Part shown: positions 710-28,889 of the stretch, in pieces
Layout: each line of letters starts with the position of its first letter
Numbering within the stretch: position 1 is the first letter of the stretch
DNA from: Thermoplasmatota archaeon
Lineage (GTDB): Archaea > Thermoplasmatota > Thermoplasmata > Thermoplasmatales > ARK-15
DNA: 64,000 nucleotides
Direction of reading: 5' to 3'
Assembly (NCBI GenBank): GCA_031961865.1
Contig: JAVRLB010000001.1
Coordinates: forward strand, 11,719 to 75,718
Translations under genes and position numbers: made by a program
Notes under the pieces: generated by a model
The model's database searches: none
Told to the model about the DNA's origin: nothing
Seen by the model: only the letters and a program-made list of their open reading frames with translations

Positions 710-854
710 GAAACTGTCAATTCTTAGTTGAAAATTTTACTTACTCTTTGAGAGGATAGAATCTAAGATTACGGTACCGTCGTCATTTTCATTTTTAAGG
801 TGAAGGTAAAAACACAGATATATCTTTGTATATAAACGAAAAGTTGACAATTTC
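710..854 (-). repeat. MITE-like dispersed repeat, copy A (inverted relative to copies B and C)
   Basis: By manual alignment, the reverse complement of 710-840 is roughly 90% identical to 28003-28132. Terminal inverted repeat GAAACTGTCAA (710-720) / TTGACAATTTC (844-854), 10 of 11 complementary. Confidence 0.7.
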
Positions 855-880
855 AAAAATAAAAAAATTTAATAAATACT
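844..880 (+). promoter_or_regulatory. putative promoter module (TTGACAATTTCAAAAA plus A/T-rich TATA-like AAAAATTTAATAAA) upstream of the 906 ATG
   Basis: Near-identical to the module at 28122-28157 upstream of alaX. The TATA-like box lies about 30 nt before the ATG, as expected for a short or absent leader in archaea. Confidence 0.3.
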
Positions 881-2057: not shown

Positions 2058-2386
2058 AAATATTGGTAAAAAGATCAGTTTATATAATTTTTTGCAATTA
2101 CAGACGTTGCCTGAAAATTTAGTAACCAGGCACACACGTTTTACTTTTTCTGAAAGTTAAAAAAATACCTATAACTGAAAATGCAAGAAGAATGGAATGA
2201 AGAAGAAGAGGATGATAGCATTGATAGAGGAACGAAGATGATCCTTGATGGCTCACTTTATGGTTCTCTATATAGTGAAAGTATGCTGGAAGTGGCATAC
2301 TAATCCCGGAATATTACAAAAAGTGAAAATTATAGTTCGGTCTGATGGTTTATTACCGTCATAGAGAGAAACGATCCTTTCAACTC

Positions 2387-2512
2387 TTCGTTGATAGCCA
2401 AGGATATATCTGTATTTTTTACATTTGCCTTAGAAATGAAAATGACAACTGTACCGTAATCTGTGTTCCTGCCATCCAAAGATTAAGTAAAATTTTCAAC
2501 TAAGAGTTGACA
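2387..2512 (+). repeat. MITE-like dispersed repeat, copy B
   Basis: Roughly 85-90% identical by manual alignment to 28003-28127. Ends in GTTGACA 27 nt before the NAC ATG. Confidence 0.65.
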
Positions 2513-2538
2513 CCCTCTGAGAAACACAAAATTAAAAA

Positions 2539-21649: not shown

Positions 21650-21970
21650 TATTCTTTAGTAAGTAATGGGATATCTTTTCATCTACTTTTTTTCGTCTTT
21701 ATACTTGACTTTCGCAAAATAGTGAAATGAAAAACATCAAAATATTATGCATTTAAATGATCTTTTAGCTATTTTATTGACATTTTATGTAGTGTGTTTA
21801 TTATTCTTTCTGGATATGTTATACCTATTTTTTTCAAGATCTATCCCATATTTTCTGATCTTAGCGTTATTATGCCTTCCGCCACTCTTTAGATTTTTCT
21901 GCTGACTCCGTTTTTTATATCTTTTGTTTGGCATATTTCAGATTTTTCCTTTAGCAGGGCAGTAAGGTAA

Positions 21971-23423
21971 ATACTTAACTCGGAATATTTTTAGGGAACA
22001 GCTCTGGTTTCAGATCGAGGGTTTCCGCAAGTTCCCTCGCCTTCTTTGGCATCTCTGCCATTATAGCCCTCTCGCCCACATCGATCATGTATATCTTTGA
22101 TAACTGCAGCAATGCGTCTTTCACACTGATTTTTCTGTTGATCTGCTTTTTCTTCAGCAGTTTCAGGATCCTGTAATAAACAAGGAGTGATATGAAGGAG
22201 AGAAACACATAACCCTTGAGTGTGTCATCGTCCTGCAGATATGGTGTGTCGACCTGCAGAAGGTTCTTGAATACATCAAATGCCTCTTCCACATCATTTC
22301 TGGATTTGTAAAGCTCGAAGATGGTCTGTGGTCTCATCCCTGTATTAGTAAGTACAGCGATCTTCCCAGCCTTCTCCAGTGAAAATTGAGGATTCTTTCC
22401 TGCATCCAGAAGAGAATAGTACTCATTCTCCTCCTGTGCTCTGAGGAGAATGTCCTCGAACACATGTACAGTGTAGTTGTTAACTGTCTTGTATGCATAT
22501 TTTATGGTTCTTTTTCGGAACATGAAGAATCCGGCTGGCTGCATAGAATAATCCGGAATATTAGAATTTCTTCTCAAAGGGGTTATGAAATACAGTCCAT
22601 GGGTATCCATCTTCCCAAAGTTGTCATCGTCAATGAATCCTCTGTCCATGACGAAAAGTGTACCTGCAGGCAGTTCCTCTTCTGTCTTTCTAAGTGTATC
22701 GATGTCAGGTACACTTCCAGGTACCAGTCTGATATAGCAGGGCTCGTCCCTGAGCCGGGAAAAGCCCATGATGATCCTGATCATGGGTAAATGTAGATCG
22801 CTGTTATTATAACCGAATTCAGCCATACTTATCCCGGAGGAATATGAGAATAATGCCGAGGTGTCATAGGCAATAATCTCATTCTTCTTCATGAGTTTCA
22901 TGAATATGGCCTTCTGCCCTGCCTGATCCTTCCCTATACGCTTCATCATAGAGGACAGTGATTTAGGAGATATCTCCGGTAATGTCTTCGAGAGCCAAGT
23001 TTTCTCTACCCAGATTTTCAGTGATTTCATTGGTACCGGAAATATGATCCGGTTAAGAGAAAATGCCATGATTCTCATGAGATCACGGGGGAACTGCCCT
23101 CTCAATGATGAGATTACATCATCCATGAGTGACCATGCTAGCTCAATATGACCAATCTCATACACACCCTTCACTGATACTATGTCCCTTACTCTTTTTG
23201 GATCTCCGTTGATCATCTTTCCAACATATTTTGAGACCTTGTGCCTCTTTTTGTGATCAGCATCCCAAACCATTGAGCTTTCGTAAACATACTCATACTT
23301 ACCAATTTTTTTAATTTCTCTGGTCATGATCAGTATATAGGGAACACATAACAGTATAAGAATCTTTCTATAAATACAGAGAAATAAGTTAACTGTTCCC
23401 TAAAAAGTGTAAGAGTTTATGGT
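21971..23423 (-). mobile_element. IS element, IS1634/IS4-type, about 1.45 kb
   Basis: Single transposase ORF. Perfect 14-bp terminal inverted repeat TTTTTAGGGAACAG (21988-22001) / CTGTTCCCTAAAAA (23393-23406), extendable to about 31 bp at 22 of 31 matches. Visibly higher G+C than the flanks. Confidence 0.7.
21975..23327 (-). CDS. DDE transposase, IS4 superfamily (IS1634-like)
   Basis: Intact Y-x2-R-x3-E-x6-K signature (YKSRNDVEEAFDVFK). DDE candidates AYDTSAL and LFVMDRGF. The N-terminal KIGKYEYVYES...KVSKYVGKM resembles IS1634-type N-termini. Confidence 0.85.
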   Translation of the reverse strand: MTREIKKIGKYEYVYESSMVWDADHKKRHKVSKYVGKMINGDPKRVRDIVSVKGVYEIGHIELAWSLMDDVISSLRGQFPRDLMRIMAFSLNRIIFPVPMKSLKIWVEKTWLSKTLPEISPKSLSSMMKRIGKDQAGQKAIFMKLMKKNEIIAYDTSALFSYSSGISMAEFGYNNSDLHLPMIRIIMGFSRLRDEPCYIRLVPGSVPDIDTLRKTEEELPAGTLFVMDRGFIDDDNFGKMDTHGLYFITPLRRNSNIPDYSMQPAGFFMFRKRTIKYAYKTVNNYTVHVFEDILLRAQEENEYYSLLDAGKNPQFSLEKAGKIAVLTNTGMRPQTIFELYKSRNDVEEAFDVFKNLLQVDTPYLQDDDTLKGYVFLSFISLLVYYRILKLLKKKQINRKISVKDALLQLSKIYMIDVGERAIMAEMPKKARELAETLDLKPELFPKNIPS

Positions 23424-23654
23424 ACATGGATATTCATAAGGCCATAAAATTAATTAATGGAAATGGAATACTTGATTCGACAATAGAACTTTTTTCATAG
23501 GATTAATTATAGTAATTACTATATACAGAATAAACAGTTCGGTAAATCACAATAATACGAGTTTCCCAAGATAAACTGAATCGATATTTCTAACGGTCTT
23601 TTACAGCCATGATAGTGGTAAAAATTTTATATAATTATTAGATATTGCTATCTT

Positions 23655-26600
23655 ATGTATAAAAAGTTAATTTCTTTCGCCATTTCTCTTTTGATCATTA
23701 TTTCGGCCATAACATTTATCTCAGATAACGGTAAATCAAATAATGATGCCTTAAAACCACTTACAGTAATAGGAAGCGGGATCAAATCCCCAGGCTTTCT
23801 GTATGAAACTCTTCTATTAAACAACAATTCTCTTATTATGGGAAATTATATAAGGGACCTGATAGGCAATAAACCCGCAAATGAATTTTATGATCCATTG
23901 AAAAATTTGATTTTTGTCTCATACTATTATTCGAATAATGTTTCTCTTTTCAATGCTTCCAGTTTGCAATTTTTAAAAAATATAACATTGCCATTTTCTG
24001 ATGCTGGTTTTATATTAAATAATAAAAACGGAAACATTTTAATCTATTCCTATTTGTCAAAAGATTTAATTATACTAAATAAAACAGATGAGGAAATCGG
24101 AAATGTTTCATTGGGTAATCCACCAACAAATCTAATATTCGATCAAAAAAATAACATAATTTATAGTCTGGAAGAAAGTGGAACAATAGAACTTTTTAAC
24201 GCTTCCACATTCGCTGAAATAAAACAACTTGACCTATTCACGGTGAGCATGTCGTATAATCCAATTAATGGTTATGTTTATGTTTTGAATTTGAACGACA
24301 CTTCTGATACTCTAATTTTCATAAATAATACCAGGATCGTCAAATGTATACCTTTGAACCTCATAGGATTAAGTCTAACTGTAGACTATTTAAATAACAT
24401 TGTACTAGTTCAAAGCCAACAAAATACTGACGAATTCAATGGATCCACTGGGTCTTGGATTCAGTCTATACCTGATGATTATTCAATTCTGACTAACTTA
24501 TATTATTGCCCTGTTAATGGTTACATATATGCAATATCCTACGCTTTAAGTCAAATTAGCGTTTTTAGTATAAATGGTACTTATATTACATCCTTCAATA
24601 CTGATTCCCTGCCTTCAATATCTCAACAGGGTATAATTTATGATTATGCAATGCAATCAATATTATTGTTAGATACTGGATCAGATAGCATTTCTATTAT
24701 ACCCTTAAACATTTATACAGTTAATTTCCATGAAAATGGTTTAGAAAGTGGAACTGAATGGTCAGTTACACTTAACGGAATTACCAAAGAATCTCTAAAT
24801 GATACAATTTCATTTATAGTAGGGAATGGAACTTATTCCTACAGCGTAGAAGTTCCAACTGGTTATAATTTGACAAATAGCAGTGGAATAATAAATGTAA
24901 GTGGTGATATCTTATTTATTGACTTAAATTTTGTTAGTCCACAAACTCTGTACAGGATTAATGTATATTCAGCCGGTCTGCCGGTTGGTGCAGAATGGAA
25001 GATAACTATTGGTAATGCTACCCAGGTAACATACAATCTAGCTGACAACGCTTTATTCCAATATGACTTTATGACGTTATATTTGCCAGCCGGTACATAT
25101 AAGTACTCAATATTTTCCCCAGGATATCATGTTGTATCTCCATTTCCAATCAATTGGACCTGGCCATCTTCTAGTCTACATCAACCTTATATAAACTCAT
25201 TGACAAACTTGTCATCAAGTGGATATATCCATATAGATAATTTCCAAGCTTTCTATGATCTCATAGCATATTTTAGAATAACCACATATAAAATTGTGTT
25301 TGAGGAGAGAGGGCTTCCCAAGGGTACTTATTGGTATGTTAATCTCAACAATGTTACTTTTGGGAGCAATAAAAATGTAATAATTTTTAATTTACCAAAT
25401 GGGACATATAATCTTAATATAGCTACTGCAGGCACTTCTTCTTCCCTTGCAGAACCATTTGGAGCTTCGTTGGATATTATCAATGGATTCAATTCAACAG
25501 TAACCAATATAACCATTAAAATTGATTCCGCCGGTAAACAAATAAATGTTACATTTACCAGAAATTATTCATATGTTTATGCAAACTTTACTTTTTTACA
25601 ATATCCAACTTTCTATCCTAAGGCTATTACCATTAATAATATAACACTCTACTCGGTATTCAACAACAATATATCATTCCTTTTGCCAAAAGGCAATTAT
25701 TCCGCTCACATTTTATCTATAATCATGGATAATGAGATCCCACCAGTTTGGGGGACTTCTTTTAATAGTTGGTTATGTCAATACAAGAACTTCTCTCTGC
25801 AGAGTAATTTGAACATAAACGTAACATTCCTTCCTCCAAAGGGATACTATGCTGTTAAAATAGTTTCACGTATGAATCCAGATAATTCAAGTTTATTAGC
25901 TCTGATTCAAAATAAATCAATTAATTATAATTATTTAATGTCAGAGAATGGCACAATTTTAACTTATCTTCCAAACGGTACCTATTCAATTTCTGGTGTA
26001 CTTATGTATTCTAACTTTTCATATAATTTGTCCCTGCAATACAATAACTACGATAATTTTTATACATACTTTCCTAATTCATTACTTGTTTCATATCAAA
26101 TTAATTCATACTTCTATTCTGAAAAAAATTTTACTGTAAAAGGGCAAAATGAAACAGTTTATATTAATTTCCTTAAGAAATATGCGATCGCATTTAATGT
26201 TTCAGGATTGTTGCAAGGAGAAGAGATACAGATTACAATAAACGGAGAACACATAATTTCCGAAAATAATCTGATAAGCATTCTTGTTCCCAATGGATCA
26301 TATAATTATTCCGTTAACGTTATTGGAGCAAATGGCCAAATTTATCTTCAAAATGGTTCTGGGAATATACTGGTAAATGGTAGTAATGTGGCGATATTCG
26401 TGACAATTATCAGGCCTGCATATCTTACCGGTTATGTTACACCTTCTAACGCAACCATAGAGATCAATGGATTAACATATATTGTAAAAAATGGAACTTT
26501 CAATATAACACTAAAGCCTGGGATTTACCAGATAATTGCATCTGCTCAGGGATATAATACTTATGTGAAGAATATAACTTTGAACTCCTCGGAGATAAAA

Positions 26601-26738
26601 TCTTTAAACATACACCTTACTAAGAAAACGAATCAGGCACCTAATTTTGGAACTGCAGCAATCGTAAGTATTATCATAACTATAATAGCAATCGGAATAA
26701 TTTCTTCACTTATTTTCAGACAGAGGAGTAAAAAATAA
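23655..26738 (+). CDS. large membrane-anchored surface glycoprotein with beta-propeller-like and repeated GLPxGTxW modules
   Basis: N-terminal signal/anchor LISFAISLLIIISAITFI. YVTN-like repeats (NPINGYVYVLN, CPVNGYIYAIS). At least four repeats of about 85 aa (YTVNFHENGLESGTEWSVTLNG, YRINVYSAGLPVGAEWKITIGN, YKIVFEERGLPKGTYWYVNLNN, YAIAFNVSGLLQGEEIQITING). CarboxypepD_reg-like GYVTPSNATIEINGL...IIASAQGYNTY. C-terminal TM AAIVSIIITIIAIGIISSLIF. Very many N-x-S/T sequons. Confidence 0.7.
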   Translation: MYKKLISFAISLLIIISAITFISDNGKSNNDALKPLTVIGSGIKSPGFLYETLLLNNNSLIMGNYIRDLIGNKPANEFYDPLKNLIFVSYYYSNNVSLFNASSLQFLKNITLPFSDAGFILNNKNGNILIYSYLSKDLIILNKTDEEIGNVSLGNPPTNLIFDQKNNIIYSLEESGTIELFNASTFAEIKQLDLFTVSMSYNPINGYVYVLNLNDTSDTLIFINNTRIVKCIPLNLIGLSLTVDYLNNIVLVQSQQNTDEFNGSTGSWIQSIPDDYSILTNLYYCPVNGYIYAISYALSQISVFSINGTYITSFNTDSLPSISQQGIIYDYAMQSILLLDTGSDSISIIPLNIYTVNFHENGLESGTEWSVTLNGITKESLNDTISFIVGNGTYSYSVEVPTGYNLTNSSGIINVSGDILFIDLNFVSPQTLYRINVYSAGLPVGAEWKITIGNATQVTYNLADNALFQYDFMTLYLPAGTYKYSIFSPGYHVVSPFPINWTWPSSSLHQPYINSLTNLSSSGYIHIDNFQAFYDLIAYFRITTYKIVFEERGLPKGTYWYVNLNNVTFGSNKNVIIFNLPNGTYNLNIATAGTSSSLAEPFGASLDIINGFNSTVTNITIKIDSAGKQINVTFTRNYSYVYANFTFLQYPTFYPKAITINNITLYSVFNNNISFLLPKGNYSAHILSIIMDNEIPPVWGTSFNSWLCQYKNFSLQSNLNINVTFLPPKGYYAVKIVSRMNPDNSSLLALIQNKSINYNYLMSENGTILTYLPNGTYSISGVLMYSNFSYNLSLQYNNYDNFYTYFPNSLLVSYQINSYFYSEKNFTVKGQNETVYINFLKKYAIAFNVSGLLQGEEIQITINGEHIISENNLISILVPNGSYNYSVNVIGANGQIYLQNGSGNILVNGSNVAIFVTIIRPAYLTGYVTPSNATIEINGLTYIVKNGTFNITLKPGIYQIIASAQGYNTYVKNITLNSSEIKSLNIHLTKKTNQAPNFGTAAIVSIIITIIAIGIISSLIFRQRSKK

Positions 26739-26977
26739 TCGGGTCTATAATGAATTAATAGGTTTATCTTCCATACTTGTTCGTCCCTTCTTTGGGTGCA
26801 CAGAAGAAGTATCCTTCCTGTTACGTGAGATTTATGTTTTGTGTCTCACGTGGGTTATACAAAATTCTTATCACTATCTTCATCAATAGTGCCTGAAAGG
26901 TTTGGTACCATAAGAAACAAGTGTTATTATTGAATCTTAAATAATAAATTTTTCAGATCATCGGATGTGTGACGTAA

Positions 26978-27190
26978 TTATTCTTTCTTGTCTTTCCTGA
27001 ATGTACTATCATTCTTTGTGATTATCACGTAAACCCTTCTTCCAATGTATCTTTTTGGAATGTCAGCCTTCCCTGACATTCCTATGGGGGTTACTGTCCT
27101 CTCAAGGAATCCCTCTATCTCATCATCCTTTAGAATAAGCTTTCCATTCTCCAGTTCCAGTCTCCTCACCATGGTCACATGGTTATTCAT
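26978..27190 (-). CDS. small AbrB/SpoVT-like protein (DUF2080, 'putative transposon-encoded protein' family)
   Basis: 70 aa. The pattern ...FLERTVTPIGMSGKADIPKRYIGRRVYVIITK matches my recollection of archaeal DUF2080. Confidence 0.5.
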   Translation of the reverse strand: MNNHVTMVRRLELENGKLILKDDEIEGFLERTVTPIGMSGKADIPKRYIGRRVYVIITKNDSTFRKDKKE

Positions 27191-27225
27191 AGATAATTAT
27201 CTAACGTTTCGTTTTATACTTAATG

Positions 27226-27675
27226 GTGCCGAAGATATTCGATGATGACATAAAGTATAAGCTTGAAGTGATCAACGGCATACTTGGCAAGAAATATAAG
27301 CTCGAGCACCCGAAGGAGGAGAGGGATTGGAGGAATCATCAAGTTCTGTCTATTCAACCTTTATGGTATCTGGAAGAAAATTGACTGTGGATGAAATTGC
27401 CAAAATAACATCATATTCAATTGCCAGATTTCTTTCTTCCCTGAACAACCTTATTGAGAATGGGCTTGTTGAAAAGCACAAGGAGAATGGAGTTATAAAA
27501 TATTCATCAAACCTGAATTTCGTTGATCTATTCGAAATAAGGAGTAAGGTAATAATGGAAAATACCTTGAACCTCTCGTTGAAGTTTCAGGAAAATACAT
27601 TCTGACAAACATTTGGATGAATTGCAGAAATACGTTAAAAACATGTATGAATATTTTCAGGATTTTTACACATAA
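27226..27675 (+). pseudogene. frameshifted winged-helix (GbsR/MarR-like) regulator gene
   Basis: Three consecutive coding-looking segments in alternating frames. Segment 1, 27226-27384 (VPKIFDDDIKYKLEVINGILGKKYKLEHPKEERD...). Segment 2, 27327-27605 (...GRKLTVDEIAKITSYSIARFLSSLNNLIENGLVEKHKENG...). Segment 3, 27607-27675 (KHLDELQKYVKNMYEYFQDFYT). The middle segment carries the HTH. Confidence 0.35.
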
Positions 27676-27855
27676 TAGTAAAAATTTCATATGTTTTCAT
27701 AAATAAGCTTATATTTTAATTTGAAAATTTTTTGAGATCTTTTTCCTGGTATAAGATATGTTATCAAAAATACAGTTCAGACAAATGGATTTATTTTTTT
27801 AATATATTTAATTGTGCAAATTAAAGGACATTTTTTGATATGTATCTAAATCCCC

Positions 27856-27929
27856 ATAATTAAAATGGGCCCGACCGGATTCGAACCGGTGATCTTCGCC
27901 GTGTAAGGGCAACGTCATAACCTGCTAGA
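27856..27929 (-). tRNA. tRNA-Val (anticodon UAC)
   Basis: Reverse complement folds as GGGCTCG-TG-GTCT..ATGAC-TTGCC-CTTACAC-GGCGA-AGATC-ACCGG-TTCGAAT-CCGGT-CGGGCCC-A. Confidence 0.9.
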
Positions 27930-28002
27930 CCACGAGCCCAGTTCAGTGTAAGTGTATATATTTGCGATATTAAATCTTTTCTTGTTTGGAGCCTGTTAAA
28001 TG

Positions 28003-28132
28003 TTCGTTGATAGACAAAGATATAACTGTGTTTTTAGCTTCACCTTAAAAATGAAAATGACGACGGTACCGTAATCTGTCTTCCTGCCATCCAAAGAGTA
28101 AGTAAAATTTTCAACTAAGAATTGACAGTTTC
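28003..28132 (+). repeat. MITE-like dispersed repeat, copy C
   Basis: See copies A and B. Ends in TTGACAGTTTC at 28122-28132. Confidence 0.7.
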
Positions 28133-28175: not shown

Positions 28176-28889
28176 ATGAAAACTGAACCTTTGTATTATT
28201 ATGATTCTTACCTAAAAGAATTTGAAGCCAAGATCATAGATATCTCTGAAAATAAGGTGGTGCTGGACAAGACCGCTTTTTATCCAGAAGGTGGTGGACA
28301 ACCTGCAGATTTTGGGATTTTGAAGATAGGTAATAAAAGTCTTAAAGTTTTAAATACTGTAAAAGATTCTGATATTATATATCATATTTTGGATTCTTCC
28401 CCCGATAAGGATCTGATCTCTTCAACTGCCTATGGTATCATAGACTGGGACAGAAGATATGCACATATGAGGTATCATACTGCAATTCACATCTTGAGTG
28501 GAGTATTGTTCAAAAAATATAACGCTAAAATCACGGGATCTCAGATCGGTGAAGATAGGGCAAGAATGGATATAAATTATGAGGCATTGAATAGAGATCT
28601 ATTACCAATTATTGAAAATGATGCAAATGATATTGTAAAGAAGAGTCTGCCTGTTACTGTAAGATTCGAAGACCCGAAAAACCTGGATTTTAATAATATT
28701 GTCAGGGTAAAACTGGATCTTTTGCCTGAAAATCTAGAAACTGTGAGATTGATAGATATCGAGGGCTTTGATTATCAGGCAGATGGGGGAACGCATGTAA
28801 AAAATACTGCCGAAGTTGGAGCTATCAAAATTGTAAAATATGAAAGTAAGGGCAAAGCAAATAAGCGAATTTATGTTTCTCTAGAATGA
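28176..28889 (+). CDS. alaX: alanyl-tRNA editing protein AlaX (AlaXM type)
   Basis: tRNA_SAD editing motifs: HTAIHILSG (HxxxH) and DGGTHV. N-terminal beta-barrel [13 protein letters not shown]. 237 aa. Confidence 0.85.

Follow-up and report, generated by a model that had tools for sequence, protein, structure and literature searches.

A family of ~145-bp MITE-like elements beside promoters in a Thermoplasmata archaeon

The repeat family and the genes beside it

The window (the whole stretch of DNA analysed, 64,000 nucleotides with a GC content of ~34%) contains three copies of a short repeat with the features of a miniature inverted-repeat transposable element (MITE). All three are matched by a single family profile, with E values between 1e-44 and 1e-48:

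710-854, minus strand: MITE copy A, 145 bp, profile E = 2.6e-44
2373-2517, plus strand: MITE copy B, 145 bp, profile E = 4e-47, with the NAC gene downstream
27989-28132, plus strand: MITE copy C, 144 bp, profile E = 1.2e-47

The first-pass annotation of this DNA had proposed three copies, and all were found about where it placed them, with copy A in reverse orientation as claimed. Its interval for copy A (710-854) was right, whereas those for copy B (2387-2512) and copy C (28003-28132) were too short: shortfalls range from 5 to 14 nt, slight on both sides of copy B and 14 nt at the left of copy C. A repeat finder aligned A with C at 86% identity over 101 nt and at 100% over another 41 nt, and B with C at 82% over 125 nt. 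The window has three occurrences of a 29-nt core pattern, and 100 shuffles produced none.

Copy A is placed between two divergent genes, one encoding a RAM-domain (Lrp/AsnC-like) protein and the other a polyprenyl synthase that starts at 906. The RAM-domain gene starts with GTG at 642 or ATG at 633; the mechanical list of open reading frames probably mis-sets this start, and the ATG at 633 is preceded by AGGTGA. The start of the NAC gene (region 2539-2563) is probably mis-set in the same list: 2560 is more likely than 2539, given that the family profile match begins at residue 13 and that relatives are 107-115 aa long. Copy C lies between the divergent promoters of tRNA-Val and alaXM, with one end towards the AlaXM start (ATG at 28176) and the other facing the tRNA gene (27865-27940, minus strand). 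For AlaXM and NAC, identical or near-identical proteins are known from metagenome-assembled genomes designated 'Thermoplasmata archaeon'; look-ups found no identical product on record for the terminal open reading frames of the window, the RAM-domain protein or the polyprenyl synthase.

The terminal inverted repeats reported for copy A, GAAACTGTCAA.../...TTGACAATTTC, are present, and across the family they are longer, forming imperfect repeats of about 22-25 bp (left, GAGCCTGTCAACTCTTCGTTGA; right, TCAACTAAGAGTTGACACCCTC). The statement that no copy contains an open reading frame is true in substance, the only ones being mechanical frames of 49-52 aa that overlap copy B by chance and are unconserved among copies. 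It had also been claimed that in every case a start codon lies ahead of the end bearing TTGACA. The copies do adjoin gene starts, but TTGACA is part of the inverted repeat and occurs at both ends, so that the claim adds nothing beyond adjacency.

In order to place the window copies among their relatives we used 32 loci (L001-L032) fetched from metagenome contigs and related assemblies. A single right-end 20-mer, matched exactly, served to retrieve all metagenome copies; a scan of metagenome contigs found it in 18 contigs of a single metagenome (JABEBX01). A profile search over all fetched sequence gave 22 hits, which reduce to ~15 independent loci beyond the window, a sample that is biased toward one subfamily by its retrieval through a single right-end 20-mer and in which the invariance of that stretch is a matter of construction. 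Together with the three copies in the window, these loci show the repeat dispersed in unrelated contexts, and they supply the further copies for which the first-pass annotation had proposed a search. Among species-representative genomes the exact 20-mer had only a chance match, inside a coding region of Pacearchaeota, which means either that the family is absent from them or that its members differ in that 20-mer. Scans of viral contigs (with two patterns), plasmids and phages found no match to the element, and a literature search for the element sequences returned nothing relevant.

Copies are 138-146 bp long, have a GC content of 30-38% and share a mean pairwise identity of 83%. In every full copy both ends fit a 22-nt consensus with 0-6 mismatches. 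A minority subtype ends in GAAAT/GAAAC; this is found in copy A and in L012, while the termini of copy C are of mixed type (GAGCC at the left and GAAAC at the right). The central ~40 nt are variable and fall into three recurring types, each common to several loci. Three of the metagenome contigs (L007, L013 and L024) terminate within a copy, which indicates that the element breaks short-read assemblies of this population.

Target duplications, empty sites and probable exchange between copies

If the repeat has spread by transposition, then copies might be expected to be flanked by short duplications of the target, and related genomes to hold the corresponding sites without the element. Both are found. 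The first-pass annotation had suggested a non-autonomous transposon and proposed that duplications and empty sites be sought, and none of the conditions that it named for refuting this reading applies. Copy B is flanked as follows:

2365-2372: left target-site duplication of copy B, AGAGAAAC
2518-2525: right target-site duplication of copy B, TGAGAAAC

The two agree at 7 of 8 positions in the window and at 8 of 8 in the orthologous locus L020. Perfect 8-bp duplications also flank the element in L009 (AAAACTCT), L012 (CTTATTAG), L019 (GAGTATAG) and L023 (TCTAAAAT), which brings the total to five loci, counting the orthologue of copy B. One locus matches at 7 of 8 positions and another at 6 of 8; the remainder are degraded or recombined, a recognisable duplication being missing in about half of the copies. 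The 8-mers that flank copy A agree at just five of eight positions, which suggests that it is an old insertion, and copy C has no target-site duplication.

The insertion of copy B is common to L020, L021 and L025 and missing from L029-L031, in which a single AGAGAAAC is followed by the same promoter and NAC gene. To the left of copy B, collinearity with these element-free genomes is lost, so the empty site is clean at the right junction only. A synteny breakpoint adjoins copy B: ~280 bp to its left (window ~2096-2372) are missing from L029-L031, and from ~2195 on the left flank travels with the MITE in L020 and L025, the sequence further upstream being wholly different. The site of copy C is unoccupied in L026 and L028, where an unbroken spacer of ~75 nt separates the TATA boxes of tRNA-Val and alaXM. 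Across ~87 kb of fetched loci from related Thermoplasmata, most of it syntenic, no copy was found.

MITEs have been defined as elements of less than 500 bp with inverted repeats of 4-30 bp and direct repeats that fade with age, AT-rich and intergenic (PMC10969869). By its size, inverted repeats, duplications, empty sites and absence of coding capacity, the repeat is a MITE in this sense.

The history of the copy C locus appears to be more involved. Four of the fetched loci (L001-L003 and L032) encode an AlaXM protein identical to that of the window and carry a different element in the same spacer:

2752-2898 of L001, also in L002, L003 and L032: ~150-bp MITE-like element with an unrelated interior, beside the tRNA-Val promoter

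Its ends are related to those of the family (GGAGGCTGTCATTT... / ...TCAAAGAACATTTGATAAGATC, also read as GAGGCTGTCATTTATTCATTGA / TCAAAGAACATTTGATAAGATC), and no copy was found elsewhere in the fetched data. Copy C has the left junction of this ~150-bp element (GTTTGG, including an extra GTTTG), and its locus is without 57 nt of the native spacer. On these junctions the simplest reading would be an insertion followed by a deletion. Copy C may first have inserted at AAAAAACA, beside the alaXM promoter, at a time when the ~150-bp element was already present in the genome; recombination between the left ends of the two would then have deleted the intervening DNA.

Other loci point to exchange of the same kind. 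L010 shares its right flank, and not its left, with L017 and L022. Between window copy C and L008, and again between L017 and L022, the flanks are near-identical and 12-20 substitutions are confined to the central 33-45 nt, where they switch between the three core types of the family. These differences reflect either gene conversion between copies or chimeras of metagenome assembly. We infer that copies recombine with one another. Such recombination, among copies and with related elements, could account for lost duplications and rearranged flanks, with the central ~40 nt probably free to vary and to be swapped among copies.

One further arrangement resembles a larger element at first sight:

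573-1434 of L016: a left and a right MITE half around a gene for a 197-aa membrane-anchored protein on the opposite strand

We considered this as an 860-bp autonomous element and rejected it: the pieces are two half-copies, the gene does not encode a transposase and the flanking 8-mers are mismatched. The arrangement is either a recombinant or a pair of truncated copies, and gene capture is possible.

Native promoters and the position of insertions

In archaea, a promoter is made up of a BRE, rich in purines or in A, and a TATA box that follows it and lies ~26 nt ahead of the transcription start. Sequences of this kind lie just outside the window copies:

2526-2537, plus strand: native NAC promoter, an A-rich BRE-like ACAAAA followed by the TATA-like TTAAAA
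28141-28152, plus strand: native alaXM promoter, GAAAAA followed by TTTAAA
27969-27980, minus strand: native tRNA-Val promoter, AAAAGA followed by TTTAAT
863-873, plus strand: native polyprenyl synthase promoter, AAAAA followed by TTTAAT

The A-rich stretch and TATA motif of the neighbouring genes sit 9-20 nt outside the element. The NAC hexamer begins 15 nt past the end of copy B, and the same sequence is present in the element-free L029-L031. At copy C, the alaXM hexamer begins 15 nt past the right end, the ATG at 28176 lies 29 nt further on, and that promoter is unchanged in the element-free L026 and L028; the tRNA-Val hexamer begins 15 nt past the left end, and the tRNA has its 5' end 34 nt further on. 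The polyprenyl synthase hexamer begins 14 nt past the end of copy A (854) and is present in L029 and L030, which lack the MITE. Given that the A-rich stretch and TATA box at loci A, B and C also occur in element-free genomes, these promoters are native and were not donated by the element.

At many loci the sequence outward from the element follows a common layout: 8 variable nucleotides (the duplication), ~6 A-rich nucleotides and then TTTAAA, TTTAAT or TTAAAA. One way to quantify this layout is to count the element ends beyond which a hexamer of the form TT[TA]A[AT][AT] starts at a distance of 14-16 nt. By this rule a TATA-like hexamer is found at 11 of 31 ends and at 10 of 16 independent loci; four additional ends have the hexamer at 12 or 17 nt. 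The corresponding background frequencies are as follows:

Per end, all intergenic sites: 3.9% with a hexamer at 14-16 nt
Per site, either side: 7.7% with a hexamer at 14-16 nt
Promoter-safe sites within 40 nt of a motif: 14.8% with a hexamer at 14-16 nt

Compared to these backgrounds, 10 of 16 loci corresponds to p values between 4e-8 and 2e-5, for a rule that was found post hoc, on the same 16 loci, which are a small sample drawn through a single 20-mer. At most of these loci the hexamer is followed, ~29-50 nt on, by a start codon or tRNA, a distance that would fit leaderless or short-leader genes. The ~150-bp element beside tRNA-Val shows the same 15-nt spacing. A further, doubtful candidate lies in the spacer between the RAM-domain and polyprenyl synthase genes, which measures 648 bp in L029 and L030 as against 264 bp in the window:

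8137-8219 of L029, also in L030: possible 83-bp mini-element with ends TGTCAATT...AATTGACA

Read from the sequence, one end of this candidate would be about 14-15 nt from the TATA hexamer of the RAM-domain gene.

Taken as a whole, the repeat is best explained as a ~145-bp non-coding, AT-rich MITE of a Thermoplasmata archaeon that is mobilized in trans, usually sits at the upstream edge of promoters and is carried as a tolerated passenger; we put the probability of this reading at roughly 0.88. We infer a DDE-type transposase acting in trans. Encoded elsewhere, it would bind both ends and move the MITE, and a staggered 8-bp cut at insertion would leave the 8-bp target-site duplications. Usually the 8-bp target adjoins the A-rich, BRE-like stretch and the TATA box on the upstream side. 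The end of the element then comes to lie 14-16 nt from the TATA hexamer and roughly 44 nt upstream of the transcription start, and the host promoter remains intact, since the sequence ahead of the A-rich stretch is restored by the duplication. The MITE is a passenger beside promoters rather than a source of them, an effect that has been shown in part.

Insertion position is the sole aspect of the family that goes beyond the routine and that might interest the specialist. As the cause of the spacing we favour target choice at the upstream edge of the promoter, because the peak is narrow and several loci have ample free spacer. A more specific proposal is that the transposase of this family, and of at least two related elements with similar ends, targets the promoter edge and cuts the 8 bp that adjoin the BRE-like stretch and TATA box on the upstream side. 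Its cue would be either the A-rich/TATA sequence itself or DNA to which TBP and TFB are bound. This proposal is tentative, and we would give it somewhat less than even odds. Comparable behaviour is known from Ty3 and Ty1 at Pol III genes and from Tf1 at Pol II promoters, all LTR retrotransposons, in which transcription factors tether the integrase. As with these, insertion occurs at a fixed short distance from the initiation machinery and coding sequence is spared; unlike them, the element is a DNA MITE for which a tether is a hypothesis, and the pattern could be explained if the A-rich/TATA sequence alone were recognized. If the proposal is true, then it would describe a prokaryotic DNA-transposon counterpart of the promoter-tethered integration of Ty3, Ty1 and Tf1.

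It is also possible that insertion is random and that purifying selection alone, in a compact genome, has left only those copies that spare promoters and coding sequences. The genome is gene-dense (~20% of the loci used is intergenic) and divergent spacers are short, with ~75 nt between the TATA boxes of tRNA-Val and alaXM. However, promoter-safe sites within 40 nt of a hexamer have it at 14-16 nt in only 14.8% of cases, compared to the 10 of 16 loci observed, and several loci offer more than 100 nt of free upstream spacer. Moreover, within that 75-nt spacer two different but related elements each sit at the extreme edge, beside a promoter. We put survival alone, too, below even odds as the cause of the spacing, and regard it as a serious alternative to target choice; selection against insertions that disrupt promoters could produce part of the pattern. 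Should the spacing reflect target choice and not survival bias, the family would be one of few archaeal examples of promoter-directed transposition, and the element would offer a natural guide to promoters in genomes for which there are no transcript data.

The first-pass annotation had raised the possibility that the element donates an outward promoter or transcription-factor site, in which case copies of such a mobile regulatory cassette would be retained for their function. Each window copy does adjoin a gene start, but the TATA boxes and A-rich stretches of the neighbours are flanking sequence that element-free genomes also have; as read from the sequence, no TATA-like hexamer faces outward at either terminus. 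In 10 of ~13 loci that could be judged, the right end has a gene start ahead of it within 250 nt; against this, the TATA-adjacent ends divide into six right and five left by the strict rule, so that any bias in orientation is weak. A 10-bp internal palindrome, ACGGTACCGT, which would speak for such a cassette, is found in some copies and is missing from the GGGGCTGTACC subfamily. TTGACA, for its part, is the bacterial -35 motif and has no role in archaeal transcription; the host being an archaeon, its reading as a -35 box is irrelevant. We consider it very improbable that the repeat is a promoter cassette.

An RNA gene fares worse still. The same annotation had named a conserved cis-regulatory cassette or small RNA gene as its alternative to a transposon, and it is true that the copies contain a conserved internal TTAAAA hexamer and T-runs, that the central ~40 nt differ among copies and that orthologous loci differ chiefly in this segment, all of which could describe a family of small non-coding RNA genes with an internal promoter and a variable, target-recognizing centre. 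The three recurring central types, however, fit exchange between copies, and transposition, not an RNA gene, explains the inverted repeats, 8-bp duplications and empty sites. Nor is there a sign of conserved structure in the analysis of folding and covariation that the annotation had proposed. The RNAalifold consensus is weak at -7.7 kcal/mol, none of 24 predicted pairs has double-sided (compensatory) change, and the two ends of the element are the only parts predicted to pair consistently. Z-scores for the folds of single copies relative to shuffles (-0.08, -3.0, +0.9, -0.3 and -1.6) scatter around 0. A search of the copies against Rfam gave no family at the gathering threshold or at E<=5. 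With the palindrome unconserved as well, neither a structured RNA nor a riboswitch-like element is indicated, and a small RNA family strikes us as highly improbable.

Related systems and other mobile DNA

IS200/IS605 elements insert beside a short fixed motif and have neither target-site duplications nor terminal inverted repeats, so that a non-autonomous derivative of this palindrome-associated type, moved single-stranded by a Y1 transposase, is scarcely credible for a family with inverted repeats of 22-25 bp and five loci with perfect 8-bp duplications of unrelated sequence, even though each end has a subterminal hairpin (TCAAC-N5-GTTGA).

The MITE reading places the repeat in a well-known class, to which it adds one family, from a Thermoplasmata lineage known only from metagenomes. 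As far as the review's account of them extends, the repeat resembles the MITEs SM1-SM4 of Sulfolobus solfataricus (Redder, She & Garrett 2001, as cited in PMC10969869) in being short, non-coding, multi-copy and mostly intergenic, in having inverted repeats with direct repeats around younger copies, and in presumably being mobilized in trans by an IS transposase. The likeness is one of description, with no sequence relationship expected, and the host is different, Thermoplasmata not being among the MITE-bearing archaea named in that review (PMC10969869).

The family also resembles the Correia elements of Neisseria, and other bacterial MITEs that affect genes, in its size class (~100-160 bp), its inverted repeats and its location near gene starts. 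Correia elements duplicate the dinucleotide TA, and we know of no description of a fixed distance to the TATA box for the Sulfolobus MITEs. Correia elements contain promoter sequences of their own, of sigma-70 type (PMC10969869). In the present family, by contrast, the promoter lies in the flank, the duplicated target measures 8 bp and the host transcribes in the archaeal manner, with TBP and TFB.

According to the ISfinder classification, duplications of 8 bp are made by the ISH1 group of the IS5 family, by IS256 and by IS1595. The repeat shares with these families the 8-bp duplication and inverted repeats of ~20-25 bp that start with GAG or GA. The GAG(G/C)CTGT with which the MITE begins presumably resembles the ends of many IS5-family elements, and we take this as a lead.

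In order to find an autonomous partner, we scanned the window and the 32 loci for inverted repeats of the family with up to 6 mismatches and with a looser terminal motif. No pair at the scale of an insertion sequence, and no transposase gene or autonomous element between such ends, was found in the window or fetched loci; a cognate IS is usual for MITEs, but the definition does not require one. In L022 (3264-5340) ~2 kb beside a MITE copy contain no open reading frame of at least 80 aa, no Rfam family and no notable tandem repeat, and translation in six frames revealed nothing either. The only IS or transposase in the window is the following:

21977-23417: IS1634-family insertion sequence (NCBIfam), ~1441 bp
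21975-23327, minus strand: its 450-aa DDE_Tnp_1 transposase

This element has 25-bp inverted repeats (AACTCGGAATATTTTTAGGGAACAG / CTGTTCCCTAAAAAGTGTAAGAGTT) that are unrelated to the ends of the MITE, and it was rejected as a partner.

At the level of the population, the MITE accounts for assembly breaks, marks differences between strains in flanks and synteny, and provides a strain-level insertion marker.

A larger strain difference surrounds the IS1634 element:

~21705-27845: strain-specific island, ~6.1 kb, between tRNA-Lys and tRNA-Val

Besides the insertion sequence, the island contains a gene for a 1027-aa protein rich in N-glycosylation motifs, an Lrs14/TrmB-like gene and a DUF2080 'transposase-associated' gene (26978-27190). 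The exact IS1634 transposase protein is on record in one other contig only, at the same locus, and in L026-L028 the tRNA-Lys and tRNA-Val genes are adjacent, without the island.
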